Positions 7,851 to 50,374 of a DNA stretch of 62,000 nucleotides are shown here, piece by piece; positions within the stretch are counted from its first letter, which is position 1, and each line of letters begins with the position of its first letter. Location of the stretch: the NCBI RefSeq assembly GCF_004010195.1, contig NC_057755.1, positions 9,339,306-9,401,305 on the forward strand, in the 5' to 3' direction. The DNA comes from Chiloscyllium plagiosum (Eukaryota). The notes beneath the pieces were generated by a model. That model saw only the letters and a list, made by a program, of their open reading frames with translations. It ran no database searches and was not told the origin of the DNA. The position numbers were made by a program, and so were the translations under genes.

Positions 7851-8559
7851 TTTTTTTACATATGAAGGAGAAATATCGTTATTCTCTAACAAAGGCAATG
7901 CTAATGAAATGTGGAATAATACAGATATAATATTTTTGCTCAGTGGGCTATGTGCAAGGAACACCGAATTATTTTCTTATCGTTCTGGATCCTTCTGCAG
8001 ATATGACAATAGATTCCCACTGTCATACAAAGTATGAATAAACTTGAATCTTAATGCCAAAAAGGCATTCTCAATTATCTTCCTTTTATTTGTAACCACT
8101 TTGCAATGAATGCACAGGCCAATTTGTAAAAACCAACAAGTTCCGCCGTGACTTTTCTCTGGGCCAATGTGTAATGCACGTGTTGGAATAGCAACTGAAA
8201 CATCTCAGCATGTCTTAAACTTCGACTGCTACATAAGCTTTATTTCCAACATCTCCCTGATAAGTGCATTTTGCCAGTCACGTTATTACAATGGTTTGCA
8301 CCGATTGTCAGCCAAAACAAAACGAAACTTCCTGAAAGAGCACAGAGTAAAACAATAGATTTCATGCGATTATTCACTTCATTTTGGACTGAATCATCCG
8401 TTTTGAAGATTAATCTAATCTGTCCATAAACATATGTATTGGTAATGGATGTTGCAAATGTGGAGTGCATTGGAGTGTTGAGCAGATGGTGCAAATACGT
8501 CAATGCAAAATCAGGACATACGGCTGATTGTAAAGTCTGAAATGCCTTTATTTGGGTAT

Positions 8560-13612: not shown

Positions 13613-14630
13613 GACGGTGGCGCACAGGGACAGAATATAAAAATGGAGTGAGATTTTATATCACTTTTGACTTAGTCCTATATGATACTAATATCGCTGA
13701 CTCATGCTGTGGAGGTGGATACATTGCCGAATATGGCATGCATTTATCAGTTTTGCTGAGGGGAAAATACTCAGATTCAGAAGTGTTTGGCACTTATCTC
13801 TGTATTGCTACCCATAATGCCATTAGGGGTAGGCAGGAAAATGTCTAACGATAACTTTCTGATCCATATCTTGCAATTGTTTCGTTCTCTGCGCTTCTTT
13901 TGCTACCCTTTATCTCTCTATAAAGATAAAGAACGGCGCAAACTACGATGGAAGTTGAACCGAGGTCCACCAGAACATTACTTGGGTGTTTGGTTAATAA
14001 TTTATCAATCGTGATATTGGGCCATCGCTTCCTTCTTAGAAAACCTGCTGATCTATTGTTATGTCTGCATGATTCATGCATTACCGTGGAGAAAGCAAAT
14101 ATAAATTAATGCGCCATACTCTTTTGGAATCACCACAATAATTGAAGTTTGGACGTCTTCAATGTTCTTGTCGAATCAATGTCCATGATTCCACTTAATC
14201 AGTTACATTGGAACTTCGGACAGTAATCTGAATTGAATTGTTCGTGTAATTCAGGGAATTGGATTTTGAGAGGCGTCCTGAGAGGCACAATAACAGAACA
14301 GCTTCTTTATCTTTACCACTTACTTCAGAAGCTGTAACAATACCCACGCACATAGCCAAGGAATGTACCATTCTGTGAGTTTTCAGATTTTGTGATTGTT
14401 ATCTTTCGATTTCCATTAACTGAGAAGTTTGTGCTCTGTGCATTCACTTATTCACAAAACATCACCATGACGTTTTCTCTCAACTGGAGAACATCATCAC
14501 TGTTCGTTCTCTGAATTTGGAAAATATGTGCTCTCTGAAGGCTAATGTAAAATTATTTGAAGAGGCATACAACAGCCCATTCGGTCCATACATTCGGTAG
14601 CTACTATGTTTCCAAACTAAACTCGCTCCA

Positions 14631-14952
14631 CTTAGAATCATAGAATCTGAGAATCCCAACAATGTGAAACAGGCGATTTGGTGGAGGAAGTGAACATTGA
14701 CCATCCGAAGAATATATCACCTAGATGCTTTCCCGACTTTATTACTTTACATTTCTCCTCACTCGTGCATCTAGCCTACACATCCCTGAACATTATGGAC
14801 AATTTAGCATGGCCAATTCACTTATCCTACATATATTTTTACTGTTTGAGGAAACTGGAGCACCCAGATGAAACCCATGCAGACAGGAGGAGAATGTGAA
14901 AAGTACACACAGCCAATCGCCCGAAGGAGCAACCAAACCCGGGTTTCTGGCT
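14631..14952 (-). mobile_element. V-SINE (HE1-like), decayed
   Basis: Reverse-complement V-domain (GGAAACTGGAGCACCC..GAAACCCATGCAGACAGG.GAGAATGTG) and AGAATC-type tail. Confidence 0.75.
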
Positions 14953-16275
14953 CTTGTCTGCACTTGACCCATATCCCTTCAAACATTTTAACTTCTTCAA
15001 AGAACAAATGCTTCAAGCATTTATTCTGGCAGTTCCTTCTGCATATGAACCATTCATGAACAACTCTGTGCATCAGTGAACCCGGGTTCCTGTGCACCCC
15101 CGGCCTCAGGATTTTGAGGATTGCGTCTTTTCCTGCAGATTTCCCTCTGTCACCTAATTACTCAGTGACAGTTGTGGCTGAAGCGAACTGGGCCAATTGC
15201 CTTGGAAGCTTATTACTCCCACTCGCTGTCACTCAGTGCTGCTTTTCTGGAAATTCTATTGACATGTTATAATTGAACATTATGAAAGGTAACTATCATC
15301 CATAACCGTTGAAATGCCTCTGCACCAGTCTATTTCGAGTAATTTGGAAAGCAATATATTATCAGCATTCTGTTTTGTTCTTCAACGCAAGTCTTTTGTT
15401 ATGAAATATTATTTAAAACTCTAATATGCATGCTAAATCTTTAATGACATTTCTCACTCAGCATCCAATATCAAATTTTAGCATAAAATGCATGGACTGC
15501 CTCATGTGCATGCGTCACGCCTTTATCTGTGTGGAGAACCCTACCCCATGGAGTATGGCAGGGAATTCTAATAAAGTGAATGCATGCCCCACCTGCCAAT
15601 CAAACGTCTTTGGTTTATTGGTGTAGAATCTTTCACGTGCAGGTCTTGATGATTTGAATGCGACAAAACAATCAAATAAATGCTTTATTTTGTTTGATAT
15701 AAGTAGGTCATTTAACATTTTTCGTGATACATAGGACATAACTGAATAATTGTCATTATTCTTTTAAGAAGTGGTCTGATTTCATTCTTTTATTCTTTCA
15801 AAGAATATGTACATGACTGGCCAGGCAAACAATTATGAATCATTCCAAATTGTCAAGATAGCAATTAAGTGTCTAACACATAGCTCTGTGTCTGGAGTCA
15901 CATGAAGCCAGACCAGCCACCGTGAGCATTTCCATTTCCTAAAAGATGTTAGAGGACGATGTGTTTTTATTTTCTGATGATCGATTATAGTATTCTGGTT
16001 TATATTTGTGAATACAAATTCCAGAATATTAATTGGCTGGATACGCACCAGGATACCCAGAAAATCCGACGAATTCATATTGGGGCAATAATGCTCAATT
16101 ATTGCTAGAATATGAATTCGTCCAATGTTTTGGGTACCAAGGTTGGAATCCAGCTATGGAATGCTATCAAACGCCTCTCGTCGTTAAACAAAAAGGAGAA
16201 AATAAATTTCAACAGAATTAGTTTGCTAGATATAAACTTTCTGAGGCAGTAGGAAGCATGGAGACAGTTTTTTTT

Positions 16276-17189
16276 TCACTTTTCCTTTCGATTAACCAAT
16301 ATCAGAAGATATGACCAAGGAAATGTCAACACTTCCTTCAACTCATGTCTGAATTTACTTTGTGTCGCTGCATAAATGCACACATTTGTGCATGAACTCA
16401 AATACATTAGCATGTAGCCAGCTTCAGTGGCAATGTAAGCTGGAGCTGCAAAATCGCCTCGATAATGTGAGATGTTTGTTATCCTAGTAGATAAAAAGCT
16501 GACAGCTGCTGTCAGCCAAAGAAGAATAAAACTGCTTGATATTGTGAAGAGTAGAATTATGGATTTCCTTCGACTCTCCACCTCTTCGTCTCTTTGACAC
16601 TCAATATTCCGACCTCTAATTGCCCTGCGAATTTTATTGGCGAATAAAATACGTCTAATGGTCAAACAATTGAATAAGAGCATCAAAGAAAATGGAATCC
16701 AAGGAACGAAAATACTGTGCAACCAGGAAAATGCAACACCTAGTGGTGAAGTGAAAAAAATCAGCTTGGTGCGACAACCCCACTGTAAATTATCAATGAT
16801 TTTCTCAGGTTCATATGCAAACAAAAACGGTATGCTCTCTAGGCATACCAAAGCAGTGATACTCATTAAAACTGCAGCCGCTGTCTTCACTGTGCAATAC
16901 TTTGTTTTCAGCCTCTCACAACATATAGCCACATATCTATCAAATGTGAACATTACAGTGAACCACACTGCCATTAACAAGCTGATTGAGTTCATGTATT
17001 TAAATAACATACAAACTCCAGTGTAGGAGAAGAAGGAATGCGTAAAGTGATAACCGAATACGTGATGTACAGTTACATTGAAGATCAAGATCATAAGAGC
17101 TGCTATTGCCATGGCCACCATGTAGGTGCAAGTACATTCAGACAGGCCGCAGTTTCTTCTGGAAAGAATTACCATTGTCATCAAGTTCG
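16276..17189 (-). CDS. Exon 2 of an intact GPR139-like class A GPCR (locus A; end of TM1 to C-terminus)
   Basis: Open frame with hydrophobic helices, NLMTMVILSRRNCGLS, WFTVMFTFDRYVAIC (DRY), ECL2 WGC and YLSSCTNVCIY. Acceptor TTCATTTGCAG|CG at 17190/17189 (phase 1); stop at 16276-16278. Confidence 0.92.
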
Positions 17190-17964
17190 CTGCAAATGAA
17201 ATGAACAATCGTTTTAAAGTGAGATCTCTTACAAAACCAAAATAATCTGAAAAAAATGATGATGTTAAATTGAAAGGTTTTGCCGCTGACACTTGTGTGC
17301 ATTGATATTTTTAATATCATATATGTCAAAGTGTTGGAACTTGCATTATAGAATAACAAAGCACTGAATACTCAAAACAGAGGGACTGAACTTTGACTTG
17401 TTTCCAGAATCGTCTAGTTAAGTGATTTAAACGATTACATGGATTAAAATGTTCAAGAGCAGTTGTTTTCTGAGTACATTGTGAACTGGAGACTGATGAT
17501 CTAATCATGAAGTCACAATGCAATCCAATTAATATACACAATGGCTATTACACTTTATTCAATTGGTAACTAAATGGACTTTTAAAATACCCAGTGCCAG
17601 CTGTCATGAGTAACTGAGTTCAGGTTCTGGTTTTAAATATCAAAGAAATGATTTGGCAAACTCTTAGAACAGTAATCATATGATAGCCACGCTAAAGAAT
17701 AAGCTGCACTATCTAAGACCTATGACTTTACTCGATCCTCTTCAAGTCTCACCACATCTCTCAGCCAAAGGTAGAAAGGCACATTAAAGCAGTTAAGCAA
17801 TAACTTATGAGGACAAATAGATATGATGGTCCACAGGATCACAGGCACATGGACCTCTATCCGGGTTTGTTTCTGATGACACTGGTGCTTGCAGCTCGGC
17901 TCGAAGAAATATAAATTTGAGTCCAAAACTGACGTTATATTCTCTGAGCTTTTAACATATCAAT

Positions 17965-18170
17965 CTTAAGAAGGCAAGTCGGAAGTGTTAGAAGCTGGTA
18001 AAATGCCTACATTTAAAAGATATCTGGATTGGTATATGAACAGGAAGCGTTTACTGGGATAGGGAACAATGCGTGCAAATGGGGAACGCTTAGTTTTGGA
18101 GATCTGGTCGGCATGGACGAGTTGGGATAGAAGGATTTTTTTCTGGTTTGTAATTCTCCATGATTGTCTA
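17965..18170 (+). mobile_element. CR1 3'-end fragment
   Basis: ACATTTAAAAGATATCTGGAT..TATATGAACAGGAAG...GGTCGGCATGGACGAGTTGG matches the 3' UTR of the CR1 at 12700-12900. Confidence 0.7.
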
Positions 18171-21100
18171 ACCATTAACCTCTGGCCTGACGATTTCCAC
18201 CACAGAGCCCAATAACAAGATGAAACTCTCATCTCTCCCTGCCAGACTGACCGTCTTTACACGTGACCACAGTTTTCATTCAACTTCTGCTTTCAGCTTG
18301 AGCGCACGTTTCATCTGCAGTCGATACATCAAAAGAACACTTCCCATAAAAATATATCATGCAAGTAACGTTCATATTTGGCCTCAACAACTAATAGAAC
18401 CTACTTTTTTTTTCTCTTCTCCTTTCAAATAAACGAATTGCTACTCAAATCGCAAAGGACACCTTTCAACTCTCATCTTGCAGTTCGTACCTTCAAACCA
18501 AAATAATAAAAACGAATAAAACGAGATAATGAAAAAATCAGCAAGGTTTCTAACAACAGTTTCTCACATAACAGTTGAAAGCTCTGAAATGTATTCATTC
18601 TGAAACGATAATAATTGTGAGATGACAAATGCTGAGCATTTACCTTCAGGATTTGTGCATTCGCACCCGTCATCAATTGTGCCTGAGAAGGATGGTGATC
18701 ACCTTCTTAATAAACATCTACCAGAATATATGAAAGAGAGCTTGTTTACTAACCACAACATGTCTGCATAAGGTCATTGCAAGTTTGAGGAACAAGACCT
18801 CATTTTCTGACCAAATTCTGTCCAAGCTACAAAAGAACATTGCATTTTGCTGAGGCACCTTACCGCATTCACGTCTCAACACTGATTTCAACAGATTCAG
18901 AGCATATCCTTTGTTTCTAATTTCTTCAATAGACATTAAGTATTCCACATCGACACAAAGATATGTGCAATTTGTGAAGTGTTTGTTTGTGAACTTCAAA
19001 ACTCTCATTCTCATGCCGATATTGCCATAATCTTGTCAGGACCATAGAATTCCGGTACTGTGGGACGTTATTCAGCCCATCATGTTGACACCGTTTCATT
19101 AGATGAGCCTCATTTTCCACTATAGCAGATAACCTTGTACCTTTCCTCACTCCCCACAAACTCCAACTCCAAAATGTATTTATTGCCATCGTTAAGGCCT
19201 CCATTGGAATTGCCTCCAAAATAATTTCAAGGAAAAGAAATGCTATGAGAACTCAGACACAAATGTTTTGTTCCTCATTTCATCCTTGCTTATTTCACAG
19301 GTCACTGTTAATCTCTGCACTCTTGTTCTTGTTTCGTTTAACAATGGGAACAATTTCTTCCCATCTACATTTTGAAGACCATTCCCGATTTTGAAAAGAA
19401 CTATCTGCTCACTAAAAACATTTTGCTCACTCATATTTTCACCAAGAAGAACAGTCTTAGCTTATTCAATCGTTTGTCATCACTGAAATTCCTCATCCCA
19501 GGCATCATTTCTGTCAATTGTTTCTTCGGTTTTCCCTCACGCCTTCACATGTTTCCCATTATGTGGAAAACATAACTGTGTACAATGTTAAACAAATGTT
19601 TTGCACAAGTTCGAACTTGAGTCATTAGTGATGCACTTTGTGTTCTTTTCATGAAGGTAGGAATTCTGCATACTTTATTTTTCATTGCTGAGAAGTCTTA
19701 TCACTTTCAATAATCTGTGCACATGTGCACCCAGATCGCTCTGCTCCTGCAATCTCTTTTGAGTTTAATGTCTCTCAAGACCTGGATAAATTGGCGTCTC
19801 TCCTTTCGGACCATTAGTACCAAAAAGCAGGAGACATTCAAATGGGACTCCCATTGCAGAATTCGTTCGCGCCAGCCATCAATTTATGTCCTTTGTTTGT
19901 GTCTTCAAACTTTTGAAAAAATTTTACATGTACTCACATGGTAACGGAGGAGACAATTACCAGACTGGGGTCATTGCGGTGAACCAGCTCTCAGATTGGA
20001 AGGCAGTGGTAGGGAGGAGAGTCCCTTTGTGGAAACCTTCACGAGGAATGAAATCTCAGACTCCAGAACTGCTAGGGTGTGGGGAGCGGTGTGTGGTTAA
20101 TTCCCGCCGTAGAGCAGTGTCATGGGGAATTGACTCTCCGAAAGGAGACTGAATCTGGGAGATGTTTCCCAAAATGCAGGGCTTTCACGGGGAGTCGAGT
20201 CACAGACTGCAGGACTGTCGCGGGGAACAGAGTGTTGGAGTTGGGACCCGTGCGGGGAAATGACTCTCGGACTGGAAGATTGTCATGGTGATCCGAATTC
20301 CGGAGTGGCAACTGGACTGAGATGCGACCTTTCGACTGGAGACAGAGTGTGAAGGTGACTACCTGACTGGACACTGGAGCCGGGAGACGTGTCCCTGTCA
20401 GGAAGTTGTCGTGGAAAGACACCAGGAAAGAAGAGCGCAGTGGGGATGTAATTCATTGACTGGAGACTGCAGCGGGGACATGAGTGCTAAATTGTAGGTC
20501 TCTCATGCAGAGGTGAGTCTCAGACTGGAATCGGTCATGATAAGGCGAGGTTCACAGTGGACTGGAGGAGAGCCCTCAAAGTTTGAAGACCAGCCTGGTC
20601 TGGAGACTTGTTCCAGTGCGGTCGGAAGCTTAAATATATCGAACATTGGGGTGTAATTCTGTTAATTGAGAACAATTTCTTTTTATGTTTGCTATTGCTT
20701 CGTGTCCTGGACATTTCTTTTGCTTTTTTTTTCAATTTTATTACATATCTTTACATGTCTATGCGCATGGAAACGAAGATATGCTGCAAATGGTGGCATT
20801 CCAAACGTTTCATTCAAGAGCACATGATAATAAAGAACATTCAAAACAGAGACACACTTGTGAGGCTGTACAATTCTCTAGTCAGGCCATATTTGGAAGA
20901 TTGTGAGCAGTTTGTTTCTGCAAGTCATAACAGCTGTTTTGGGCTTGGCCGGATCAACAGAAGGTATACAAAAATAATCCTGGGGATGAAGGTCTATCAA
21001 CTTTCCTTGTCATTTTCAAACTGTAAATCATCTAGTTATAATCGGCTATGCACTTAACATTCTTATTTGATCTTAGGTAACTTATGATACTCACTTCATC

Positions 21101-21810
21101 TGCTTCACTGGGTCACAAACCTAGTCCTTTTTGTTCTAAAAGCTGTTCCTTGGCTCAAATATACTCTGTAAGCATGTCTTCCAGTTATACTTTTTTTTAA
21201 GGGAGCTTGCTTATTGAGAACTGTTGCACATATTCAGCATATTGAAGTCGTCTTTGGATAGACTGAGTTCTGACAGGGTTATGTTTTATTCTGTTCTTCG
21301 TGTTTCATTGTGTAATTTTGTGAATAATTTTTGTCAACCTCACTAACTTAATCGAGGTTTAGTTACGGTACACTTACCGAAACAAATTGCGAAGTTATGG
21401 TCTGGGCTCCCTGTTTAAGATTATTTTGAGTGGCCTGGCCTTTTCCATAACAGACTGGGGCCTCCTTATGGAATTTTAAACAGGGAGTGGTAGGGGCCAG
21501 TGTCTTTATTTCGGGCGTTGTTTTGATTGTGTAGACCAAGCTTCGGATAGTAATGGCTCTTTAAGTCGCCAAAAGTTTTCTGGATGTGTATCCCGTGCCT
21601 TTGGAAGTTTTGCAAAAAATGAATAGGACAAAGCTGCAGGAATTAGCAGAGAAGCTGAAATTTGAACGAGCTGCTTTTTTGAGCAAAGGAGAGTTAATTG
21701 CAGCAACTCAGCATTTAAGCTTGTTGGAGAAACCATCCAGAATCTATAGAGATGGCAAGACTTAAATTGAAAATTAAGCAACTTGTGTTAGAGGCGATAC
21801 ATAACGCAAG

Positions 21811-22739
21811 TGTTCTGAAGAGTTGAGTGTATCTTTAGTAGGGTTAACAATCAGCATTACTGCCGGACATAAAAACCAAGTGTTCTCAATAACACAACAA
21901 TCTATGTAACAATAGGTCTAATACTCGAGTAGTTCATTGCCTGGAGACAAAAACAACTTCTAATTTGGCTAATCAACTTGACTTATACTTCTAAAAATGC
22001 CAATTTCCAATCAAGTTTCAAATTAGTATATTGAAAATATTTAAAAAAAATCAATGACACAATCCGATGCTCTGGGGTATAAGGTCAAAAGGAGATTGAA
22101 CCATGGAGAGGAGAAGTGCCAAGTCCTAGCATGTAACAGACCGCTTGAGAAATAAACTCTTTCAAGTACGTTTTTTTTCAATCAGCCTAAATTATACCCC
22201 CCAAAATACCAATTTCTAATCATATCTGAAATGACTATATTGAAAATCTTAAAAGGCACTGACGTGATCCAGTGCTCTGGGGTATAATGTTTGGAAAAAA
22301 ATGAACAGTTGAGAGAGAACTGCCATGTCCGAGCATGTAGTATACTGCTTGAAAAATATATCTCTCTGTCAAGTATTTTTTTTCAATCAGTAACCTGTAA
22401 ATCAGAAATTCTGAACAAGGAGAAAATAAGACACAGGAAAATCCGAAGACAAGAACTTACAGCTACCTGATTTTGAGATAAGAAGTGTTGTTTTATAAGT
22501 CTTAACTGGGAATTTTATCGGACTAGTGCGACAGAAGGGAAGGTAAGAAATAGAATAAAGAAATAAATTGCAAATGCTGGTTACTTAATTATTCTCTGTT
22601 ATACTTCAAGAAGTAAAGTTGTTAATTTTTACTTTGCATAGTTCTTGGTTACACAAAGATTTACAGGTTAAAGCACGGCATAAATATATTGATTTTGCTG
22701 GTTTAAATTAAGCAGGAGAATTTACCCCGTGTCGTAATA
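21811..22739 (+). mobile_element. Solo LTR (second family) inserted into gag of the Gmr1-type element
   Basis: Starts TGTTCTGAAGA and ends GTCGTAATA; homologous to the inverted copy at 26952-27649; gag reading resumes on both sides; near-TSD CAAG/AAAG. Confidence 0.75.
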
Positions 22740-23232
22740 AAAGGGCCAGCCGAAATGAAACCGTTTCAGTTACAACTAAAGTCAGAAGAGAGGGAAACGA
22801 GAGACCAGCAGAAGAGAGGGGAAAAAGAGAGAGCAGAGAAAGAAAAAGAGCGAGCTTTTTTCTTCAAAAACTGACGATCAAAAATGAAAGTCAGCTTAAA
22901 AGACTGGCGACCAAGGCTGAGGGTGGTCTTAGTGAAGAATACAGTGAGGATGAGCAAGACCTGGCAGTCAGAAGCCTTGTGCGAAACTGTTTAAGTATGT
23001 TCAAGCATTGCTTCAATTTGAGGAGATGGATATGGAGGCTTTTTTCATCTCATTTGAAAGGTGGATGAACATATATAGTGACGAGTTCTACTGTGTGTTC
23101 TGTTGATCCAAACGAAACTTGTAGGTAGGGATTGTGAGGTATTCACATCACTTTCAGAGGAGGTAACTGGGGAGAATGAGAAGGTGAAAAATGCTTCTCC
23201 CAGAAGCATTTAGGCAACACGTCACGAATCTA

Positions 23233-23732
23233 NNNNNNNNNNNNNNNNNNNNNNNNNNNNNNNNNNNNNNNNNNNNNNNNNNNNNNNNNNNNNNNNNNNN
23301 NNNNNNNNNNNNNNNNNNNNNNNNNNNNNNNNNNNNNNNNNNNNNNNNNNNNNNNNNNNNNNNNNNNNNNNNNNNNNNNNNNNNNNNNNNNNNNNNNNNN
23401 NNNNNNNNNNNNNNNNNNNNNNNNNNNNNNNNNNNNNNNNNNNNNNNNNNNNNNNNNNNNNNNNNNNNNNNNNNNNNNNNNNNNNNNNNNNNNNNNNNNN
23501 NNNNNNNNNNNNNNNNNNNNNNNNNNNNNNNNNNNNNNNNNNNNNNNNNNNNNNNNNNNNNNNNNNNNNNNNNNNNNNNNNNNNNNNNNNNNNNNNNNNN
23601 NNNNNNNNNNNNNNNNNNNNNNNNNNNNNNNNNNNNNNNNNNNNNNNNNNNNNNNNNNNNNNNNNNNNNNNNNNNNNNNNNNNNNNNNNNNNNNNNNNNN
23701 NNNNNNNNNNNNNNNNNNNNNNNNNNNNNNNN
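23233..23732. other. Assembly gap (500 N)
   Basis: Run of exactly 500 N, probably a fixed-size scaffold join. Confidence 0.99.
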
Positions 23733-26032
23733 TGTTCCCCGTAATATGTTCCCCTGTTTCTGTCTGCAAAAACTCTCAGCTCTGGAATGCAATTTGTACT
23801 TGCAAATTATATAGCTGATTCACTGGTAGGTGTGCTGCCTACCCTAGTTGAGAAGCGAGTGGCGACGCAGGCAACTGAAGACATGAAAAAAGTTTTTTTA
23901 TGTCCAGGAATTTTCACTGATTGTGTGATCACAACATCACAGAGACACAAGCTGAAGCAAGAGTGATCAAAGAGCAGAGATAAGGAAACTGATGTAGTGT
24001 TATCCGATACACTCTTTCATCAGACAAGTGGAACTGAAAAAAAGCTGATTGACTTAAAATAGAAAGATGAGAACTGAGAACAATATATCAAAAGGCATTT
24101 ACATCGAAGGAAACTGAATGCATTCCTCTGTGTTATTACTTAAAAATTGATGTCTTAATGAGGAAATGGAGACCATCACACTTCCAAGCAGATCAGAGGT
24201 GGGCGGAGATTCATCAAATTGTTTTGCCAGTAGGATAAAGAGAGAATTCCAGAGCAACCCCATTATGCAATATCACAGCAAAAAGGTTTGTGGAAGAATT
24301 ACGTTTTTTAACTAGATAAGGGGTTCCAGCAGAGATCCAGTCCGATCAGGAATCAAACTTCACATTGAACATATTCAAAGAAGTTATGGTTAACTTGGGA
24401 GTAAAGCAATTCAAGTCAACTGCCTCGCGCACAGAATCGTAGGGAGCACTAGAGAGATGGAATCCCACACTAAAGACCATGTTGCGGTCTTATGGTCAGG
24501 ATTATCTGGATGATTGTGATAATGGAGTTGCATTTGTACATTTCACGAAAAGCGATGCACCGAATGAGTCGATCTAATTCAGTACACTTTAATTAACTTT
24601 TGGGCATGAAGTAAGAGGAGCATTAAAACTCATTAAGGAGAAATTAATTAGTCAGAATTCAGATACACCCATTTGGATTATGTGTCAAATTTTAGAAAAC
24701 GATTAAATAGAGCTGAAGAGTTGACTATTTAAAAGTATTTAAAAGTATTGCACCATGCAATGGAACAGGAAGCAGATAAGAAATCTCAAATAAGGTATTG
24801 TTGTTACTTCCAGTAGTAGGTGTACTTTTAAAAGCCAGCTTTCGTGGATCTTATGAAATCGAGTGGAAATTGAATGAGGTGAACTATTTGATAAGGATTC
24901 CAGGCAGGAAGAAATCTCGCAGAATGTGACATGAGAATGTGCTCAAAATGTATTTTTATAGAGAAGGAAAGCAAGAGGAGAAGGTGGGAATGATTCAACC
25001 ACAGATGGAAGAGTTCAGAGTCCAAGTTCAGGAGATTCTGAGTTGGATATGTTCAAATCAAATTGGCCAATGAGGAAGTTGTCAAAAAGTTCGATATATT
25101 ATTGAGTTGCCTTCCACAATAAAATCGAAGTGACCTGATAGCGATACGACTATTACATAGGGAGATTTGTGGAAATAAACAGAAGTACTAACCTAATTGT
25201 GCATGACATAGAAATAGGAAATGCTGTTCCGATTAAGCAGCGTCCTTATAGGCTTAACCCTCTAAAGTTGGCACGCGTTCAGAAGGAGATAGAGCGCATG
25301 TTCCACGATGGCATAATCAAAGTGAGTTACAATGACTGGAGGTCACCCATGGCCATGGTACCAAAGCAAATTGGTACCCACTCGTTACGTGTGGACTATC
25401 GCAAAGTCAACGTCATTGCAAAGACTGATGTATATCCAATTCCACGGTTGGAGGACTGTGTCAAATCGTGGGATAATCAACTTACATTTTGATGTTGGAC
25501 ATGCTCAGAGGCTACTGGCAAGTACCTCTGTCAGAGAGAGCAAAGAAGAGCAAAGGTCAGAGAGAGCAAACGCCAAATGGGCTATGTCAGTTCAAAGTCG
25601 TGCCATTTAATATGAAAAACGCTCCAGCCATATTTCAGAGTCAGATTAGTAAAGTCATTGCCTGCTTACCCAACTGTGTGCTGTGTATTAATGACTTGGT
25701 GATATTTAGTCACTCATGGAAGGAACATTTACAGCATTTATCCGATGTGCTCGATCAACTTCAGAAGGCAGGATTGGTGGCAGATCTAGCTAAAAATGAA
25801 TTTTTCAATGCCCATGTCGCCTTCCTGGGCCATGTTATCAGACATGGACAAATGGCCACACTGGATGCAAAAATAAAATTAATTGAGGAATTTTCCACAC
25901 CGTTGACAAAAAATAGGCAGCACTACTGTTCCTGAGATTGACTGGATTTTACAGATAATTTGTATCGAACTTCAGCAGTTTGGCTCCTCCATTCACCGAA
26001 TTGTTATAAAAGGACAAGAAGCTTCAGTGGAC

Positions 26033-26202
26033 TTCAACAGTGAGATTTGTGGAAACTCTTTCTTTCCTTCCAACTTCAACCTGTTACCATGTGGTCCATT
26101 TGTACTAGTTTTTAAAGTTCAACAGTGAGATTTGTGGAAACTGTTTCTTTCCTTCTAACTTCAACCTGTTAGCATGTGGTCCATTTATACCAGTTTTTAA
26201 AA
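26033..26202 (+). repeat. 85-bp tandem duplication at the RT/3' LTR deletion junction
   Basis: TTCAACAGTGAGATTTGTGGAAACT... starts at both 26033 and 26118. Confidence 0.9.
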
Positions 26203-26951
26203 CTTATTGGCACTGTTGTGTGTATTCGGAGCAGCATTGTTAAGTCCAGTTTGGATAGACTGACTTCTGTTAAGGTTCCTTATTCCATTCTTCGTGTTTG
26301 TTTGCGTAATTTTGTGATTTTTTTGTCAATTTTAAAACTGTAGTCAACCTCACTAGCTTAATCCGGCTAACTTTTACTGGACACTTACGAAAAAATTGCA
26401 AATTTATGGTCTGTGCTGCCTACTTTACAATGCTTTGAGTCGTCTTGCCTCGTCCATAACAACTGGGCAAAACTCATGCTCAGACCTAATGAATAATTGG
26501 TGAGGCAAGACCATTACATCTTTTTTTCCCTCTATGTTCACTATCAACGCTAATTTTCATATTAGCTTTCTGAATCATAGTCTCAAATCATCCTCGCAAA
26601 TTCAAGATTTTTGAACATATCTCTTCGAGTCCCTTTGCTTTACATCCCAGAAAGACCATCTGATTTTGATTCCACGTCAATTCCAAGCTATTTAACTCAA
26701 AGCATATCTGTTAACCTATACCAGCAGAATATCTATTGATTTGGTGTGTGGTATTCTCAAATTCAACCTGGCAGTGAAGAAAGTTAAAAAAAAGAAAATG
26801 ATTAATTTGAAACAAAGACAGCCATGCTTTAAGAATGCTTTGTCATGGAATGCCTACGAAGTGCAAGTTGGGCGGATGTATCACTGCAGCGGGAATAGGA
26901 TACTCTGAGAGACTGATTAATAACTCAGATTTATCCTTGGCCACTTGCTAT

Positions 26952-27649
26952 TTTTACGACATGGAGTAAGCCCTCCTGCTTAATTCAGACCAGCAACACA
27001 GAAAATATTTCTCCCATTCAGTAATCTGTGAAAATTCGAGAGTCCAAGAACTATTAAAAGTAAAAATTAAAAACTTTTTTCTTAAAGTGTGACAGAGAAT
27101 AATAAACTAACAACTATTTACAACTCCTTCCTCGAGTATATCATTTACCTTCCCTTCTATAATACTAGTCTGATAAAGCTCCGCAATTAAGATTTTCCAA
27201 AAATTCACGTTTTCAAAACCAACTAGCTGTCAAGTCTTCTATTAGGATTCCTTTGTCTTCTTTTCTTCTTCTTTGCGATTATGATTCACAGGTCACGGAT
27301 CGAAGAGGGTACCTTTAAGAGATTGGTGGATGCCATTGGCTTGGCAGTTCTTCTTCCAACTATTCAATTTCCCCCAGTCTTGCACTCACAAAGCATCGTT
27401 TGTGCCATTGGTTTTTAAGATTGTCAATACACTAAATTCATACATGATTTGGAGTATAGTAATTTTAGGGCTATAATTTAAACTGATTGGTCTACTTCAA
27501 AACTGTTTTGTCATTCCCAGACAACCCAGCTAATCCACCTTCTGACCAAGTGTTACATTGTTACCTTATTCAGAACATTGTTGCTGTCAGGTATTCTGCG
27601 GGCTTTTTAAATTTTCTTAAAGTTATAGTGCACCCACATCTTCATAACA
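26952..27649 (-). mobile_element. Solo LTR (same family as 21811-22739) nested in an old CR1 fragment
   Basis: Minus strand begins TGTTATGAAGATG; the other end matches 22500-22739. The CR1 peptide DIESKSK...QLEYCTQ continues after 27650; near-TSD CTAT/CTCT. Confidence 0.75.
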
Positions 27650-28842
27650 CTCTAGACATAGAGTCCAAGAGCAAACCGTTTCTGTTCAACTTCTGGAAGG
27701 AACTAGTTCTCTCTCAGCTGGAATATTGTACTCAGTTAGAGGAACCATATTCTCAGAAGGATATGTAGCTACTGAACAGATTAGAACACAGAACGTAAGA
27801 ATTTGGAAGAAGAGGAGGCCATTCAGTGCCACAAGCCAGCTCTGCCATGCATAAAACGATGGCTGATCTCATTCTGGCCTGCACTCCAGTTTCCTGGACG
27901 ATACTTAACACTTGAATTCACTTCTTATGAAAGATTTGCATTAAAGGTTACAAATTCTGTCTGAATCTGTAACCTTTCATTTCAGACTACCCCACACACG
28001 GAGACATCGTCTCAACATCTTCTTCATAAATTCCTGGGAGCAGCATGCATCCATCAGTAAGAGCACCTCTTATTCCATCAAACGCCATAGAATGTAAGCT
28101 AAAATCCTCACTCTTTCTTATTAAGGCACATGCAATTTCTCTGGAAATTAATCTCTTGATATTCCATTGAACAATGTCCAGTGTCCTCACTCTGTAAGTA
28201 AGGGGGAAAAAGCAGTAAGGAATAGTCCAGGTTTGTTATGTTTGTTCTCACTAACATCGTGCACAGTTGCAACAAATCATCCCAATTTTTATACTCTATT
28301 CCTTGAGCAAAACATGCCGATATTCAATTTGCCTTCTTTATTACCTGCTATACCTGCAATCTCCTTCACGAAAATTCAGCCATGATGTCACGTCCCTCGA
28401 CATGAAAGCAAAATTACGACATAGATTCAAACACTCAAGAAAGAAGAAAGTGCTTGATAACTGCAGTGGCCAGAACAAATTGGCACAGTCGAAAAATACT
28501 GCACAGGATTGAAATGAGGAGGCATTTCTTTGCCCAGAGTGTGGTGAAGGTTTGAAATTCTTTGTAACTGAAAGTAGTTAATGGCAAAACGTTGAGTGTT
28601 TGAAAAAATGCAATTCAGATGGTTCTTAATACTTAGCGGATCAATGGTTGTGAAGAGAAAGTGGAAGCAGGATAGTAATTTGCACGACCAGCCTGAATAT
28701 GTTGAATATTGCTGAAATATTCATGGGTTGAATGGCTCCTCACGTTCGTCTTTTGCAACTTTCTATGGAATACATACCTCTTCAGTGACTGTATTGTCAG
28801 AATTTGTTGACTGTGTGAAATATTCGGATATTCTTGTCTTAC

Positions 28843-28912
28843 CAAGAATGCCAATGGCTGCAAGGATCGGGTAGTATATTATCTTCATCTGTAGAATCAC
28901 TGGCTGTGCCAT
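28843..28912 (-). CDS. Exon 1 of GPCR locus A (MAQPVILQMKIIYYPILAAIGIL plus 1 nt)
   Basis: 70-nt exon with strong Kozak context (AGAATGG), N-terminus/TM1 motif IYYPILAAIG, and donor G|GTAAG at 28843/28842. Phase 1 fits the exon 2 acceptor, giving 984 nt / 327 aa. Confidence 0.88.
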
Positions 28913-28964
28913 TCTCAGACGAATATCTGCAATGTATCCAGATAGAAGACTTCACTTGCAATGC

Positions 28965-28995
28965 AACTGAGGACTGGGAATATTCTCTATTTATA
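28965..28995 (-). promoter_or_regulatory. Candidate core promoter of GPCR A: TATA box and Inr
   Basis: TATAAATA at 28995-28988 and TCAGTT at 28970-28965 (+1 near 28968), followed by a 56-nt ATG-free leader. Confidence 0.55.
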
Positions 28996-31436
28996 GAAGA
29001 ATCTGTCCCTGGTTGTGGCGGTTTGAACATTGTCAGAGTTTGTTATGATCATTGATGAGATTTTTGCCGCATGATTTAATCCATGAGGAAATGACATGTC
29101 TTCTTAACATATGCACCTTTTACGAAAATAAACATAATGAAAATCGTGAAAAAACTACTGTGATTGGTACAGTTCCAAGAAACAGAAATAAGGCATTGAA
29201 CCATGTCATTTTGTTGGCTCCCATTTAGTTCTGGTGAACACGCTAAATTAATTTATACAGTAATTCGAAAGTTTTAGGCACAGCTTTGAATTTTCCCAGG
29301 CATTATCATTTATTAGAGTAATTTATCATTCATCCTGATGAACATCCTTTAAAACCAGTAGTGGAAGCATGTCATAGAATTTCTGATAGACATTAGTGAC
29401 TGCGGGTCAGGTAGAGCTGTGTAGGCTGAGATTCAACGATTCTTAATCAGGAGGGGATTCATGGTTGTGGGAAAAGAGTAGGAAAGTGGACTTAGGATGT
29501 TTCATCAGCTACGATCCTCTTGGATCAAGGGGCCGAATAGCTTATTACAATTCCCATTTAAAATGAGTTTTTAAAATGGAACATTGTTGAAGTTTTTAAA
29601 TGAAATCAAAATAAGCAAGAAGAAAAAGTGTAAACAGCACCACAAGAATCTAAGCAATGACTTTTCAAGATTAAATTCGAATATTGTTTCGCATGAACAA
29701 AACAGAAATCCTGCATGACGTGCTTACTTGAATATTTACCAGATAGAAGGTTTTGATGTGTCTAATACTGGGGACGTGAATGTAAAATGAGGGTAAAAAT
29801 GTTCAAAGGAGATGTGATCAGCAGGTCATTTAAAACAGAGAGTGGTATGGTTCTGGAACCCGCTGCCTGGATTGATAAAGGAGGCAGATACGGCAAGGGC
29901 ATTTAAGGTACTTTTAGATCAGCATATGATCTAACAATGGAGAGATATGGACTAAGGATAGGCAGAATGGATTAGTTTGGTATGGCGTCACAAGACCTTG
30001 AGACACAGGGCCAGATCCTGCACTGTCCAATTCTATCATCTATGTAGATATCGATTTAATGTCAAAGGCCTGAGCAAAGTTGCAACTTGGTCTCAATTGA
30101 CTGGATGGTTAGTTTGCAATGCTGAATAAAGCGAAAAGGTCGTTTCCTTAGTGCTGCTGCCATGAAGATTCAACATTGCTTCTTTCCTGAGATGGTGGCA
30201 CTCCAGTTAAGCCACCACCAGTTGTTTCTCTCTCATGAGAATTCAAGAACATAACAGCATTATATTTATGTAACCTTGCAACCAAAATCCTATTCTATCT
30301 ATGCATGCAAGCTGTTCGGGTGATTATAGCTCTCGGTGCAAAACAAATAAATTTCCTGGTATTTGGTCATTTCTAGAAAACATGATGCAAAGCAAATGAA
30401 AATAAAAGATTGTCCAAATTTAAAGAAAACGCATAAAGCCATTCGATTTAAAGTTTGAATGTGTGGAGCAATGAAGACGTGTTATGGAGAACGTCTAATT
30501 TTCATTTGGACACTGTATTCTCATTTGGAAGTGCTTATTTTCGAAGGAAGAACACTTGTTTTGAAACAGGAATTCTGTTTTCTTTCCACATATTCTGCCA
30601 GGCCTGCTGACACTTTACAGCAATTCCTGTTGTTTGCGACAGTACTTGCTGTGTTCAAATTGCAATGAATACACTGAAAGTAGCAGTGAAATGAGACAGC
30701 TTCTGCAGTGTAACTGTGAGGTGACGGAAGTAGAAATTTAGCAAATTATGATTCTTATGCTATTGGATAAAGTGATCCTCAAGATTTATGTCAGCTACTA
30801 ACAGCATGGGCAGAAATAAATGCTACTTCTAATCTGGTAAAATTGGGGAATGAGAGGACATTTGTCAAACGGTACCACTTGTGATATTATGTAGCTCTCA
30901 GTCCATTGCTCTGCATTGTATATATCCCAACAATGCCATCTTGAAAAGGGAAATGACAAGCAACTGACAGCTGGAATCATCCTTTGTATGTTGTTAGGCT
31001 TCACGGTCTGACATTAACACTGAAATATGTTTCTTTGGGTTATCACGAGTTTTAAACTGTTGCTTCCTTCATTAATTATCATATTTTTGTAGATTCCTGT
31101 GACTAATCTCTAAGTCTAAAGCATTTTTTAAAAATTGTAGAATATTTGTAAGCAGTTTTAGATGAATGTAGAAATTTAGTGAAACGTTATCAAAGAAAGA
31201 CATTTTTTGTTAAAAAAACAGACTGATGTCGGGTCAAATCATGGCTGTGATTCCTGCAGGAACTGTGACATCAACATTTATTAACTACTATTGAAGTTGA
31301 AACAATCTAGGATGGGGGACACGGATATTATTTTCTTCTCTTCATTTATCTACATTATGCAAACACGCCAGAGAATCTTAGTTTCACATAAAATACGAGT
31401 GAAATTCTATGCTTACCTGCTAATAGGAATTCTCAA

Positions 31437-32315
31437 TCATCTCCTTTTCATATTTAATAACTTTACAACGAACGCACAGGATTTCAGAAGATTCAAAAGC
31501 TCTCTTCTGAATTTCTTCTGGACCACTACATAAATGCATGTGTTTGAATAGGATATCAAATGCGTTAGCGTGGCTTCAGTTTGGTATGCCCTAGACTTTG
31601 GACTTGCAATATCTCCTTGGTCGTAAGAGGGATCTGTCAGTCTGGTAATTACAAGGTATATCACAGCTGACATCCATGACAGAAAGAAACTTCCCAACAC
31701 TACACACAGTAAAGCAAGTTTTTTGTTTGATGCATTAAAGTAAGATCACGTTGATTGCCAATTCTGTGACTTCGAAGTACTCTGCGTGCTTTTTTTTGCC
31801 ATTATATGTCTGATTATGAATGAATTAATCAAGGAAATTTGAATGAAAGGATACCAAACTAAGTAGATGTCGTAAAACTAGATGTACACTACTCCTGCAA
31901 TTTAGGGAAGGAATATTATCATTTCACCCCGTTAATAAGTTGGCCACATTCATATGGAAGGAAAATGGCGATATTCTTAATAAGCATGATGGCATAGATC
32001 ACGGTTATAATTTCCATGATACAGTCCCTTGATTGAAATTTCGGTCAGCGATAACCACAAAGCCATCAAAAGTGAAGGCGACTGTGAACCAAATTGATAA
32101 ATTGAACATAACAATAGCCAGGTAGACAGTCAACTTGCAAATATGCTAATGAGACCAAAACGACACTGGAAAGTGATACACAAGAATACGATTAACTATG
32201 AAAATACTGATTATAACCTGCAGCTCTGCTGTTGCCATAGCAAGCATGTATTTACAGATGCACTTCGAGAGTCCACATTTTCCACGCACGGGAATTAAAA
32301 TCATCATCATGGTCG
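31437..32315 (-). pseudogene. GPR139-like GPCR exon-2 pseudogene (locus B)
   Basis: RGKCGLSKCICKYMLAMATAEL, WFTVAFTFDGF and LISYSNTCIYVVVQKKFRREL; stop at 32146, frameshifts, acceptor reads CAA instead of CAG. Confidence 0.9.
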
Positions 32316-33228
32316 TTGTAAAAAAGACACGGAAGAGGAATATTGACTCAAACATTTTTTTTCCTTTCCAGAATAGAAACATAGAAATGAAACATTAATT
32401 GTAACTCAAGTGACTATACAGGATTAAAAACAAAAATGTGGAAGCTCCTGACTGCCTGCCATAGTAATTAGTAAGCGCAATCTGCCTCAAATCACAAACA
32501 TATTGATGAGCATAACTTCGTTTTGTTGTCACGAAAGCGTTTGTGGAAATCATAGAGGCAAAGAGGATTACAGCAGTGTAAAGGAACCTTTCGCATATCA
32601 ATTCTTCACCAGTCAAGAACAACTAAGTAAGTATTCTAATCCCAATTTTCAGCACGTGCACCACAAACCTGGTATGTACTGGCATTTTAAAGCTAATCTG
32701 AATTTTTTTAAGAGTATGAGGGGTTCAGACCCTTACACTCTCAGAAGTATTGACTTCCAGATTTCCATCACTATTTTAATGAAAATACTTTTTCATTTCA
32801 TTTCCTCCAACACTTCAGCCCTTAACTTACATCGAGGTCACATGGTAATTAATACTTCTAATAATGGAAACAATTTCTCCTGGCCTACTTGGTTATGCCT
32901 CTCATAAGTGTACACTTTTGATGCATGTCCCCATCTAATCTCTTCTGCTGTAACGATCTGACTAATCTCTTTTCATGAGCGACTCTGACGAGCCCAGGCA
33001 TCATTCTTGCAAATCTCTTTGAATCCTCTCCATTGCAATTATATTCCTCTAATTATGCACACTCTGGAACGACATACCACTGAAAATTTCCAATGTTAGT
33101 TTGCCCATTTCATTCTCGGATTTAGCTTAGCGACAGGAAAGTTCTGTCAAAAATATCCTTCCACAATGAAGACTGAATTTCTCTTTTTGCTATTCTAATG
33201 ACCATTCAATAAGAAATGACCCAAAATT

Positions 33229-35290: not shown

Positions 35291-36664
35291 ATTTAAAATA
35301 ATGATGGAAAAGGTTGGACAGATCTAAAAGTTGAAGTTCTAAATTGGAGAAAGGTTAATTTTGACGGTGTTAGGCAAGCACTTTCGAAAGCTGATTGGGG
35401 CAGATGTTCGTAAGTAAATGAACGGCTGGAAAATGGGAAGCCTTCAGAAATGAGATAACGAGAATCCAGATAAAGCATATTCCTGTCAGGGTGAAAGGGA
35501 AGGCTGGTAGGTATAGGGAATGCTGGATGACTAAAGAAATTGAGGGATTGGTTAGGAAAACGAAGAAACCTTATGAAAAGTATAGACAGAATAGATTGAG
35601 TGAATCCTTCGAAGAGTATAAAGGAAGTAGGAATATACGTAAGAGGGAAATCAGGAGGGCAAAAATGGGACATGAGATAGCTTTGGCAAATACAGTGAAG
35701 GAGAATCCAAAGAGTTTTTACAAATAAGGACAAAAGGGTAACTAGGGAGAGAATTGGGCCCCTCAAAGATCAGCAAGGCGCCCTTTGTGTGGAGCTGTAG
35801 AAAATTGGGGAGATACTAAATGAGTATTTTGCATCAGTATTTACTGTGGAAAAGGATATGGAAGATATAGACTGTAGGGAAATGGATGGTGACATCTTGC
35901 AAACGTCCATATTACAGAGGGAGAAGTGTTGTCATGATACGCAAAAAATTGGAAAAATCCCCAGGACCTGATCAGGTGAACCCAAGAATTCTGTGGAAAG
36001 CTAGAAAAGTAATTCCTGGGCCTCTTGCTGAGATATTTGTATCATCGATAGTCACAGTTGAGATGCCGGTACACTGGATGTTGGTGGTGCCACTGTTTAC
36101 GAAGTGTGGTAACGACAAGCCAGGGAACTGTAGACCTACTGTCTGACGTAGGTGGTGGGCAAGTTGTTGGAGGGAATCCTGTAGGACAGGATGTACATGT
36201 ATTTGGAAAGGCAAGGATTAATTAGGGACTGTTAGCACAGCTTTGTGCGTAGGAAATCACGTCTTGCAAACACTGTCTGACGTAGGTGGTGGGCAAGTTG
36301 TTGGAGGGAATCCTGTAGGACAGGATGTACATGTATTTGGAAAGGCAAGGACTAATTAGGGACAGTTAGCACAGCTTTGTGCGTAGGAAATCACGTCTTG
36401 CAAACGTGATTTAGTTTTTGGAACAAGTTACAAAGAGGATTGATGAGAGCAGAGAGGTAGATGTGACCTACATGGACTTCAGTAAGGTGTTCGACCGGTT
36501 CTCCATGGGAGACTGATTAGCAAGGTTAGATCTCATGGAATACAGAGAGAACTAGACATTTGGATAAAGAGCTGGCTCAAAGGTAGAAGACAGAGGGTGG
36601 TGGTGGTGGAAGGTTGTTTTACAGGCTGGAGGCCTGTGACCAGTGGAAAGCCACATGGGTCGGT
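35291..36664 (+). mobile_element. Internal CR1 ORF2 fragment (both ends missing) with a 134-bp tandem duplication
   Basis: WMTKEIEGLV, ENPKSFYK, KSPGPDQVNPRILW and MDFSK; ends abruptly at the GVPQGS-equivalent motif; 36138-36271 is repeated at 36272-36405. Confidence 0.9.
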
Positions 36665-43765: not shown

Positions 43766-44308
43766 AATCCAATCAGGGATGGCAAGTGACGTATAATTGA
43801 CTGCAGAAAAATAAATCACATGCATATTATTTGGTTTAAGCAATTGTCGGTTGCAATCAAATTAGTTTCGTTCAGGTTTCACGAGTTTTAAAATATTGCT
43901 TTATTCCATAATTTATCACATTGTTGCTGATTCGTGTGAACAACAATCCTCCTTTCTCTAATACTTGCTCGTCAACATATAACACATTTTAATTTCAATT
44001 TTGTTGAATACTTACAAACAGTTTTGATTCATGAATATGCTTGAGGAAACATCATCAGAGAAACAAATTCTGTCTGTACATTTAAGAAAAACGTTTGTCG
44101 CATGGTTAAATCACAACTGCAATTTTCACCTGGACTGTGACATCAGAGCTGCTTTCATAACGATTTGACGTAAAAACAATCAAGAATGAGGGACAGTAGT
44201 TTTATTTTCTCCCCATTCATCATCTTTATCCAGACATAATAAATTATCCTGGCATCATACAAGGGACGAGAAAAGAATCTATTTCTATCAGCTAACAGGT
44301 ATTCTTAA

Positions 44309-45213
44309 TCATCATCCTTTCATACCTAATAACTTTAAAATGTACGTTCAGGATGATTTGACAATATATACCAGGTCTTCTCTGCATTTCATCTGGGTCC
44401 CTGCACAAGTGCACGTTTTTGAACAGGGTCTCAAATACTTCAGCATGCCTCCAGCTTCGGCTGCAATATCTGTTGGATTTGTAATGTATCTTTGGTATTC
44501 ATTGATGCTTGTGATTCTGGTCATTGCAGAGGTTATCTCATTTGTCATCACAGTAGAATGAAACGTCCCGATACACCAAAGAGCAAAAACGATAGATTTC
44601 ATTACAATCTTTATCTCTGAATCATAAAGATTGTCAATTGCGTCGATCTGGATTGCTCTGCGTGTTTTCCTGTTCACGAGTAAATGTCTGTTTATCAATC
44701 TATTAATGAAGGCAATCAATATAAAAGGAAAACAGACACTCTAAAACCAGATGTACACCACTTCTGCAATTGAAGAAAGTAATGCCACACTTAGTTGGAA
44801 GTTCAATTTCACCTTGTTTAATAACTGTACAATTTCAGATGTAATGACAAATGGGGATATCCTTAATGAGCATGAAGTTACAGCTCACGATTATAACTGT
44901 GCGTGCACCTCGTATGGTACAAAACATTGTCTTAAACTTTGGACAGTAGATGATGACAATACAATCAAAAGTGAAGGGGACTGTGAATCAGACAAATGGA
45001 TTGAGCACAAGAAAAACCATGTTGCAATCAAATTTGTAATTTTGCTTATGAGACAGGAAAATAATGGAAAGTGATACGTAAAAATGTTATTAACTATTAT
45101 ATTATTGATTATAATCAGTAGGTCTGTTGTTGCCGTGGCAAGTATAAAGATAGAGGAGCACTTCAACAGGCCACAGTTTCTCTGCACAAGAATGACAATT
45201 GTCTTCAAGTTCG
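44309..45213 (-). pseudogene. GPR139-like GPCR exon-2 pseudogene (locus C)
   Basis: ANLKTIVILVQRNCGLLKCSSIFILATATTDLL; V*FTVPFTFDCIV (W to stop, DRY lost); IAAEAGGMLKYLRPCSKTC; frameshifts; acceptor reads GG. Confidence 0.9.
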
Positions 45214-49391: not shown

Positions 49392-50240
49392 TCATCTTCC
49401 TTTCGTATTTAACAACATAACAACGCCAACACAGGATACTTTGAGAATTTTAATTATCTTTTCTCTGAATTTCTTCTTTGTCACCATGCAAATGCGCGTG
49501 TTTGAACAGGAACTCAAAAACCTCAGCACAGCTCCAGCTTCATCTGCATAGAGGCTAGATTTCCAAAGTCTCTTCGGGAATACCAGAGGTTTATGAATCT
49601 GGTTGTCAGATTGGTCGTTGCAGTTCGATTCTTCACCTCGGGATCACATTTATTGTCAATTATGTGACTGCAATGTCCTCTCGGGGTTTTACCTTTTATT
49701 ATTATATGTTTTATTTTCAATGCATTAAATAAAGCAATTAAAATGAAAGGAAAACAAACTAAACAGATGCTTTAAAAACATGTACAATATTCCTGAAATT
49801 GAGGGAAAGTGTTTCACACTTGCCTGGCAATTCTATTTCATTTGTTAGTAATGCGTTCATGTTTGCATGGAATGATAATGGAGATATCCTTAATAAGCAG
49901 GAAGGTGCAGCTCATACCAGCAACCACGTCTGCAAATCGCACCGTGCTATAACTTGTTTTATTCTTTGGACAGCCGATGAAGACAAAACAAAGAAAAGTT
50001 AATGTGATAGTGAGCCAGTCTGAAAAAATCGAGCACAAGACACGACATCTAGAAGTTAAACTTTAAAATGTGCGTATGGGACAGAAACGTCGACAGAATA
50101 TGACACGTAAAAATTCTACAAACTATGCCATTGTTAATTCTGACGAGCAGGTCTGCTGCTACCACAGCAAGCATATAGGTAGAGATGGAGTTCGAGAGGC
50201 CAAACTTTCCGAGCAAAACATTCAGTCTTCATCATGTTCG
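49392..50240 (-). pseudogene. GPR139-like GPCR exon-2 pseudogene (locus D), TM6 region deleted
   Basis: YMLAVVAADLL, DWLTITLT, DPEVKNRT joined directly to ECL3, LRFLSSCSNTRICMVTKKKFRE; frameshifts; acceptor CAA. Confidence 0.88.
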
Positions 50241-50374
50241 TTGGGAACAAGACACAGGAGAGAAATATTGACTGAATTTTTTTTTTCTCTCTCGAATAAC
50301 AACACTGGAATGAAATTTGAATTGTTAACCAAGTGCATTTGTCAGGCTTAATTTGATCTGTCGTGGCAGAGCAA

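Follow-up and report, generated by a model that had tools for sequence, protein, structure and literature searches.

A two-exon GPCR gene of the shark Chiloscyllium plagiosum and its probable place in a large GPR139-related receptor family of sharks and rays

Among characterised receptors, the nearest relative of the gene reported here is GPR139. A review gives this receptor two exons, expression mainly in the brain, peptide and amino acid ligands (L-Trp and L-Phe among them) and 70% identity between its human and zebrafish forms (PMC7318219). GPR139 and its paralogue GPR142 have been tied to the invertebrate MIP and FMRFamide receptors (PMC8514136), and GPR210A/B are GPR139/GPR142-related orphans of coelacanth, gar and fishes that have no human orthologue (Rinne et al. 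2019, PMC6504862). Cartilaginous fishes have been described as poor in G protein-coupled receptors (GPCRs; PMC8455134). Here we describe a receptor gene of Chiloscyllium plagiosum, which lies on the minus strand at 28912-16276 of a 62,000-nucleotide stretch of contig NC_057755.1 (positions 9,339,306 to 9,401,305; this whole stretch is called the window, and position 1 is its first letter). By its sequence, the gene belongs, as one copy among many, to a very large family of shark and ray receptors, a GPR139-related clade that has expanded in cartilaginous fishes. The family is apparently undescribed. A published description of such an expansion was not found in a search that left most subscription papers outside it. 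A survey counting 20-62 olfactory receptor genes in cartilaginous fishes does not mention GPR139 in its accessible text (PMC10869828), the accessible part of a paper on the catshark chemoreceptor repertoire deals with known families only (PMC6368271), and the family is not mentioned in the accessible main text of the catshark genome paper (PMC11979771). The whale-shark supplements (24) hold no "GPR139" entry and give a GPR142 orthogroup of 70 proteins in 35 taxa. We suggest, with a probability of about 0.4, that the gene may belong to a repertoire of receptors with which the animal senses chemical cues from outside.

The locus is almost certainly an intact two-exon class A GPCR gene, in which an 11.7-kb intron swollen by repeats separates a short first exon from a single large second one. 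An ATG at 28912 opens the coding part of exon 1 (28843-28912, 23 residues and one base), which runs for 70 nucleotides (nt) to 28843 and is followed by a GTAAG donor. The splice acceptor TTTGCAG ends at 17190, and the coding part of exon 2 (17189-16276, 914 nt), which holds the Pfam 7tm_1 match, runs without disruption from the end of the first transmembrane helix (TM1; the other helices are numbered likewise) to a stop codon at 16278-16276. Joined in phase 1, the two exons give 327 amino acids. The phase-1 intron (17190-28842) measures 11,653 nt, an assembly gap of 500 N at 23233-23732 counted in. The first exon contributes about ten extracellular residues from the start codon on, and then most of TM1. 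A first-pass annotation of the window had proposed this two-exon structure and the very short N-terminus, and both are borne out by the start codon, the splice sites, the phase-1 join and a zebra-shark protein with the same exon pair. It had also held that the start of a 338-residue open reading frame (MSAAKPF) is intronic read-through. This is right, except that the frame does not begin with Met: the codon is GTG, which is Val in the eukaryotic code. The best 19-residue mean hydrophobicity is 1.44 for the read-through start vs 2.06 for the spliced TM1. The coordinates and donor given for a 70-nt first exon are also correct, but 70 nt is the length of the coding part only, and with a predicted transcription start near 28968 the exon would be about 126 nt in all. 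The first in-frame ATG of exon 2 (17181) yields a 301-residue protein, and this is the form in the public record P0001, which has neither exon 1 nor most of TM1. A correct full-length model therefore matters in practice. By itself the gene model is ordinary, a short first exon having been overlooked by gene callers; the notable part is the expanded family.

In sequence comparison, the strongest evidence for the join is the zebra-shark protein P0004, which pairs the same two exons. It shares 20 of the 23 exon 1 residues, the best of the other 100 aligned relatives sharing 16, its exon 2 is 72% identical to that of the window gene, and it falls within the small subclade of the window gene in both of our trees. 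A profile made from the first 23 residues of 78 relatives, P0004 included, scored above zero on two of the 123,858 six-frame 23-mers of the window, namely the exon at 28912 (66.5 bits) and the first exon of a broken copy at 46574 (39.2 bits). A first exon of the same kind is present in 93 of 119 listed relatives (the non-self entries of the best 120 of 1162 matches, from 1793 candidates), and in 81 of them exactly 24 residues precede the TM1 Asn, as here. The remaining 26 public relatives lack the family first exon, 16 having an alien start and 10 beginning at an internal Met. Because the alien starts of the 16 end at about the same junction, the intron position appears to be family-wide and often mis-predicted. 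The intron of GPR139 may lie at the same place in TM1, the review mentioned above stating two exons only.

Upstream of exon 1, the sequence reads as a candidate promoter. A TATA box candidate, TATAAATA, occupies 28988-28995 on the minus strand and starts at 28995, and an initiator-like TCAGTT stands at 28965-28970. The A of this word, the predicted +1 at 28968, is 27 nt downstream of the start of TATAAATA, and the 5' untranslated region would be about 56 nt long, with no ATG between the TATA candidate and the start codon. The ATG at 28912 has a strong Kozak context (A at -3, G at +4). All three elements had been named in the first-pass annotation and are present; a TATA-like word stands 40-120 nt upstream of 67 of the 2616 ATGs of the window. 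No tandem array was found upstream of the candidate promoter. On the other side of the gene, the first AATAAA, a candidate polyadenylation signal, is at 15966-15971, about 300 nt after the stop.

The relatives of the gene are strongly restricted. All 119 listed relatives come from sharks or rays (16 species), and among the matches listed three single species contribute at least 31, at least 29 and at least 25 clusters. The closest of these matches are whale-shark and zebra-shark proteins, and one chimaera member was found. The window gene is nested among shark and ray paralogues and has the 24-residue start and the LS and WGC motifs. In both trees, individual subfamilies have members in different shark orders and in rays; these are quick trees made without true GPR139 and GPR142, neither of which turned up as a usable protein in the searches. 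A profile search of cluster representatives, in which 20 of the 150 listed were looked up, showed related receptors in salamanders, a caecilian, coelacanth, teleosts and amphioxus. A search with a newt protein gave 25 matches from 1675 candidates, comprising 20 amphibian, one sturgeon and four elasmobranch proteins; no amniote was among the 25, which in a word-based search does not prove absence. There is one cluster per species among the 20 amphibian matches. In the two trees, the chondrichthyan radiation has the amphibian-sturgeon group as its sister (SH-aLRT, a branch-support test, 99 and 92), and coelacanth and teleost proteins fall outside. The amphibian and sturgeon proteins (P0205, P0277-P0296) represent an apparently unnamed single-copy receptor of frogs, salamanders, a caecilian and sturgeon. 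The amphioxus proteins (P0237, P0238 and P0312-P0319) form a small related group with a long third intracellular loop; several lie on contigs of equal length within one species, so that they are possibly clustered in the genome. An amphioxus profile used to look for true GPR139 found 11 proteins of the amphioxus type, together with one somatostatin receptor from a fish.

Pfam 7tm_1 is the only Pfam match of the window protein (66.5 bits with a cut-off of 30.5, E 3.3e-18). The class A motifs Asn1.50, DRY, Pro5.50, Asn7.49/Tyr7.53 and Cys3.25 are present, and three class A positions are changed: Asp2.50 is Ala54, Pro6.50 is Thr250 and Pro7.50 is Val293. These are variants within class A, and membership stands. 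Thr6.50 is found family-wide (115 of the 119 listed relatives). Asp2.50 is kept in 110 of them; the window gene (codon 54, 17099-17101) and four close carpet-shark relatives (P0002, P0003, P0004 and P0016) have Ala, P0023 has Pro, and all 20 amphibian sister proteins have Asn. Cys3.25 is invariant in all 119, where GPR139 has Asp, and every invariant column of a 35-sequence alignment is kept in the window gene. A predicted model of P0004 (mean pLDDT, the per-residue confidence score, 75.8) has seven long helices, with TM1 at residues 5-33, across the exon junction, and matches class A structures at a TM score of about 0.7-0.8. The second extracellular loop (ECL2) is modelled as a hairpin, and the family has the TM3-ECL2 cysteines, both of which are typical of peptide receptors. 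Outside the family, the sequences that resemble it most are Srw/FMRFamide-type peptide receptors.

How might such a receptor be used? We propose that a GPR139-related ancestor has remained a single gene with an unchanging pocket in amphibians and sturgeon but multiplied in cartilaginous fishes, where the half facing the G protein would have been conserved in the copies while the pocket was free to change. As the copies differ in the pocket, each would bind different ligands, and from the ECL2 hairpin of the model and the ligands of GPR139 we infer that these may be small peptides or amino acid derivatives, which would sit in the pocket between the transmembrane helices, beneath an ECL2 hairpin tied by a disulfide. 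Within the 62 kb of the window, one copy is intact, six are broken and one is cut, a tandem birth-and-death pattern. In the 20 amphibian orthologues the pocket evolves at a rate of 0.18, vs 0.57 at other outer sites (p 1.6e-4), whereas in 120 elasmobranch sequences the pocket rate is 1.17 and that of the inner half 0.57. The shark-to-amphibian rate ratio is higher at pocket sites (p 6.5e-4), a comparison of shark paralogues with amphibian orthologues over sites that are not independent, and chemical-class entropy at shark pocket sites is 0.99 vs 0.65 (p 0.013). At position 6.51, Lys is found in 20 of 20 amphibians and Arg in GPR139, and a basic residue is not among the five commonest in the shark set. 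Taken together, the pocket pattern suggests a fixed-ligand receptor that was turned into a repertoire, although relaxed selection would give a similar picture. Two further pocket tests were set aside. A first test (1.61 vs 0.93 bits, p 1.6e-4) was confounded by the conserved inner half, the proper control giving p 0.42, and a 16-site "core pocket" (p 0.009) was picked after the data had been seen and is not counted.

Several points weigh against a repertoire for outside chemical cues. The pocket was defined as 27 generic class A positions and not from a structure of the window protein. Among shark paralogues, pocket sites are not faster than other outer-half sites (27 vs 50 sites, 1.17 vs 1.08, p 0.42); the shark pocket is thus unprotected, and relaxed selection also explains the pattern. 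With Ala at the place of Asp2.50, signalling may be atypical. No read over the exon junction was seen in two single-cell RNA runs labelled as the same species, of which only 2% (X5) and 6% (X6) was read. On 14000-29500, 32 reads of X5 aligned, 31 of them only partly, and none of X6; a single X5 bin overlapping the start of exon 2 had a depth of 0.44, which is not assignable, and a further run (X7) showed no depth on either exon. With such small fractions and no tissue labels, the RNA runs neither support nor exclude expression, which the first-pass annotation had called probable. Finally, no GPCR is among the top 50 genes of a catshark brain-plus-olfactory library in the accessible part of that report (PMC11979771).

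The same diversified repertoire might instead serve barrier or immune sensing, in leukocytes, mast-like cells or skin and gill nerve endings, and detect microbial or damage peptides, as mammalian MRGPR and formyl-peptide receptors do. The tandem gain and loss of copies and their variable pocket would be just as well explained in this way, and the ECL2 hairpin and the TM3-ECL2 cysteines also speak for it. Cartilaginous fishes lack MAS1 and its relatives (PMC8455134), which leaves the corresponding role open. Against it stands the mainly cerebral expression of GPR139, the closest relative to have been characterised; we consider a barrier or immune role rather unlikely, and it is the strongest competitor of sensing outside chemical cues.

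The family could also consist of receptors that, like GPR139, have endogenous neuropeptides or amino acids as ligands. Tandem duplication would then have raised their number in a largely neutral way, and the variation of the pocket would reflect relaxed selection. The equal rates of pocket and other outer sites in sharks (p 0.42) would be expected from this, six of the eight copies in the window are broken, and the single-copy amphibian sister has the almost invariant pocket of a receptor with a fixed ligand. The persistence of subfamilies across shark orders and rays and the conserved inner half argue against it, and the changes at pocket sites cross chemical class more often (p 0.013), the basic residue at 6.51 having dropped out of the five commonest. 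We regard largely neutral growth as unlikely.

Another unlikely account is that the reading frame of the window gene is intact while this copy is silent or does not signal, being a young pseudogene, a scavenger or a decoy. The lack of junction reads in the partly read RNA runs (2% and 6%), the Ala in place of Asp2.50 and the death of most neighbours speak for it. The same Ala is, however, found in intact whale-shark and zebra-shark relatives, and all invariant columns of the 35-sequence alignment are kept. Here the TATA candidate and the Kozak context are undamaged, as are the two splice sites, whereas a decayed neighbour has lost its donor. In DNA run X3, a contig of exon 2 has 8 differences, and the 3 displayed are two silent changes and one Phe-to-Tyr exchange.

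It is very improbable that the model fuses exons of two adjacent sister genes, the missing half of each lying in the assembly gap. No contig piece among those listed for run X3 bridges the gap at 23233-23732, and several close whale-shark paralogues of the subclade have no annotated first exon. On the other hand, the same exon pair is seen in the zebra-shark protein, the sequenced part of the intron contains no further exon of either kind, and both exons are at single-copy depth (about 14-15) in X3. The first-pass annotation had relied on a retrotransposon that is colinear across the gap. Decayed sequence of a long terminal repeat-type retroelement does lie on both sides (21166-26467, plus strand, antisense to the gene), but it is not a single clean copy. 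The direct repeats flanking the gap (21166-21459 and 26166-26467) are 70% alike, and a second repeat (22382-22743) has an inverted copy at 26948-27304 that is 72% alike, so that two repeat families are nested. Moreover, the very high contig depth of the region in X3 indicates a high-copy family. For these reasons the colinearity lends weak support to adjacency. A reverse-transcriptase domain is found right of the gap at 25477-25932 (Pfam RVT_1, E 9e-15), and upstream of it there is a weak Integrase_p58_C match (E 0.017, below the Pfam cut-off). Over 23733-25935 the integrase-like part thus precedes the reverse transcriptase, and this is the order in Gmr1-like elements. Putative gag-like pieces left of the gap have no Pfam match. 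Two-copy tandem repeats were also seen in repeat sequence, at 26033-26201 (85 nt, 94%) and at 36138-36405 (134 nt, 98%), and the latter could be an assembly duplication.

Orthology of the shark gene to GPR139 or GPR142 is effectively refuted: the family profile does find human GPR139 as its top solved structure (E 6e-18) and most relatives bear its name automatically, but identity is 22-24% vs 70% between human and zebrafish GPR139, two of six ligand residues are kept, and CCR1 scores equally in a single-sequence search.

The window gene sits in a head-to-tail tandem cluster in which most neighbours have decayed. Seven more copies of the family lie within the 62 kb, all on the minus strand, six of them broken and one cut by the window edge; the claim that the gene is the only demonstrably complete receptor of the window thus holds. 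The broken copies are a frameshifted TM6-TM7 fragment with stops at 8090-8404, an exon 2 with stops and frameshifts and no first exon found at 31440-32322, a two-exon copy at 44318-46574, an exon 2 at 49395-50260, a 3'-truncated copy at 53551-54210 inside a local duplication, and a TM6-TM7 fragment at 59144-59317. In the two-exon copy, the first exon (46574-46505) stands about 1.3 kb upstream of a disrupted exon 2 (45226-44318), so the layout is the same with a much shorter intron; the donor of this first exon has TT for GT, and the sequence upstream of the exon shows no TATA box. The cut copy, at 61761-62000, is the 3' end of a further paralogue, with 79 codons open to the stop, and may be a second intact gene that continues beyond the window. 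Receptor-bearing units are locally duplicated, at 86% between 49686-52003 and 53594-55986 and at 65% between 31023-32572 and 43859-45470, which is tandem duplication of different ages. A stretch common to 32467-32888 and 56601-57016 has no match to a Pfam family.

Compared with known systems, the family stands closest to the amphibian and sturgeon receptor (for example XP_069092602, automatically named "probable GPR139"). The two agree in the 24-26 residues before the TM1 Asn position (six checked), and the amphibian and sturgeon receptor differs in its almost invariant pocket, keeps Pro6.50, Lys6.51 and Asn7.39 and is about 32% identical to shark members. With its one copy in frogs, salamanders and sturgeon it makes the question testable in Xenopus and, if our proposal is true, would offer a route to the original ligand. 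The relation to GPR139 itself is more distant. Among human proteins, the family profile matches GPR139 best, as do the coelacanth and newt relatives, and the family profile finds it first among solved structures (E 6.1e-18), followed by CCR1 (3.9e-14); with a single shark sequence as query CCR1 scores as high. Shared with GPR139 (PDB 7vug, 9m42) are a TM1 that starts with YY followed by G-x-P-A-N, His5x43, Trp6x48, an acidic residue at 7.36 and an NPxxY motif without Pro. In a mapping by eye, two of six GPR139 ligand residues are kept (His181, H5x43; Trp248, W6x48), and Glu3x32, Phe3x33, Arg6x51 and Asn7x38 correspond to Asn90, Ser91, Ala251 and Tyr282. GPR139 is also one conserved gene, whereas the shark family has many copies per genome and Thr in place of Pro6.50. 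A zebra-shark relative is 22-24% identical to human GPR139, and given this, the two of six ligand residues and Cys3.25, the automatic name denotes kinship and not orthology; the label "GPR139-type" of the first-pass annotation is too narrow for a protein of this expanded clade. GPR210A/B are likewise GPR139-related and non-amniote, and coelacanth and teleost proteins of that description neighbour the window clade and have equally short N-termini; the accessible text of the GPR210 survey has no sharks and reports no expansion (PMC6504862). In our trees the coelacanth and teleost proteins form clades apart from the shark-plus-amphibian clade. If the proposal is true, the picture of GPCR-poor cartilaginous fishes would have to be revised, with dozens or more unnoticed family genes in each genome and pockets that vary freely, whether for smell, skin sensing or immunity. 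These animals have large olfactory organs, and the repertoire might outnumber their known smell and taste receptors combined. The established chemosensory families and MRGPR/FPR are known for tandem clusters, many pseudogenes, short N-termini, variable pockets and a conserved cytoplasmic half. In its tandem copies, pseudogenes, short N-terminus, variable pocket and conserved inner half, the shark and ray family resembles OR, TAAR, V1R, V2R, T1R, T2R and MRGPR/FPR, and it differs from all of them in sequence, 7tm_1 being its only Pfam match and membership in none of these families being indicated. It may tentatively be viewed, although this is doubtful, as an unrecognised seventh chemosensory family of vertebrates, GPR139-related and expanded in sharks, rays and chimaeras, of which amphibians and sturgeon would keep one ancestor-like copy with a fixed pocket.

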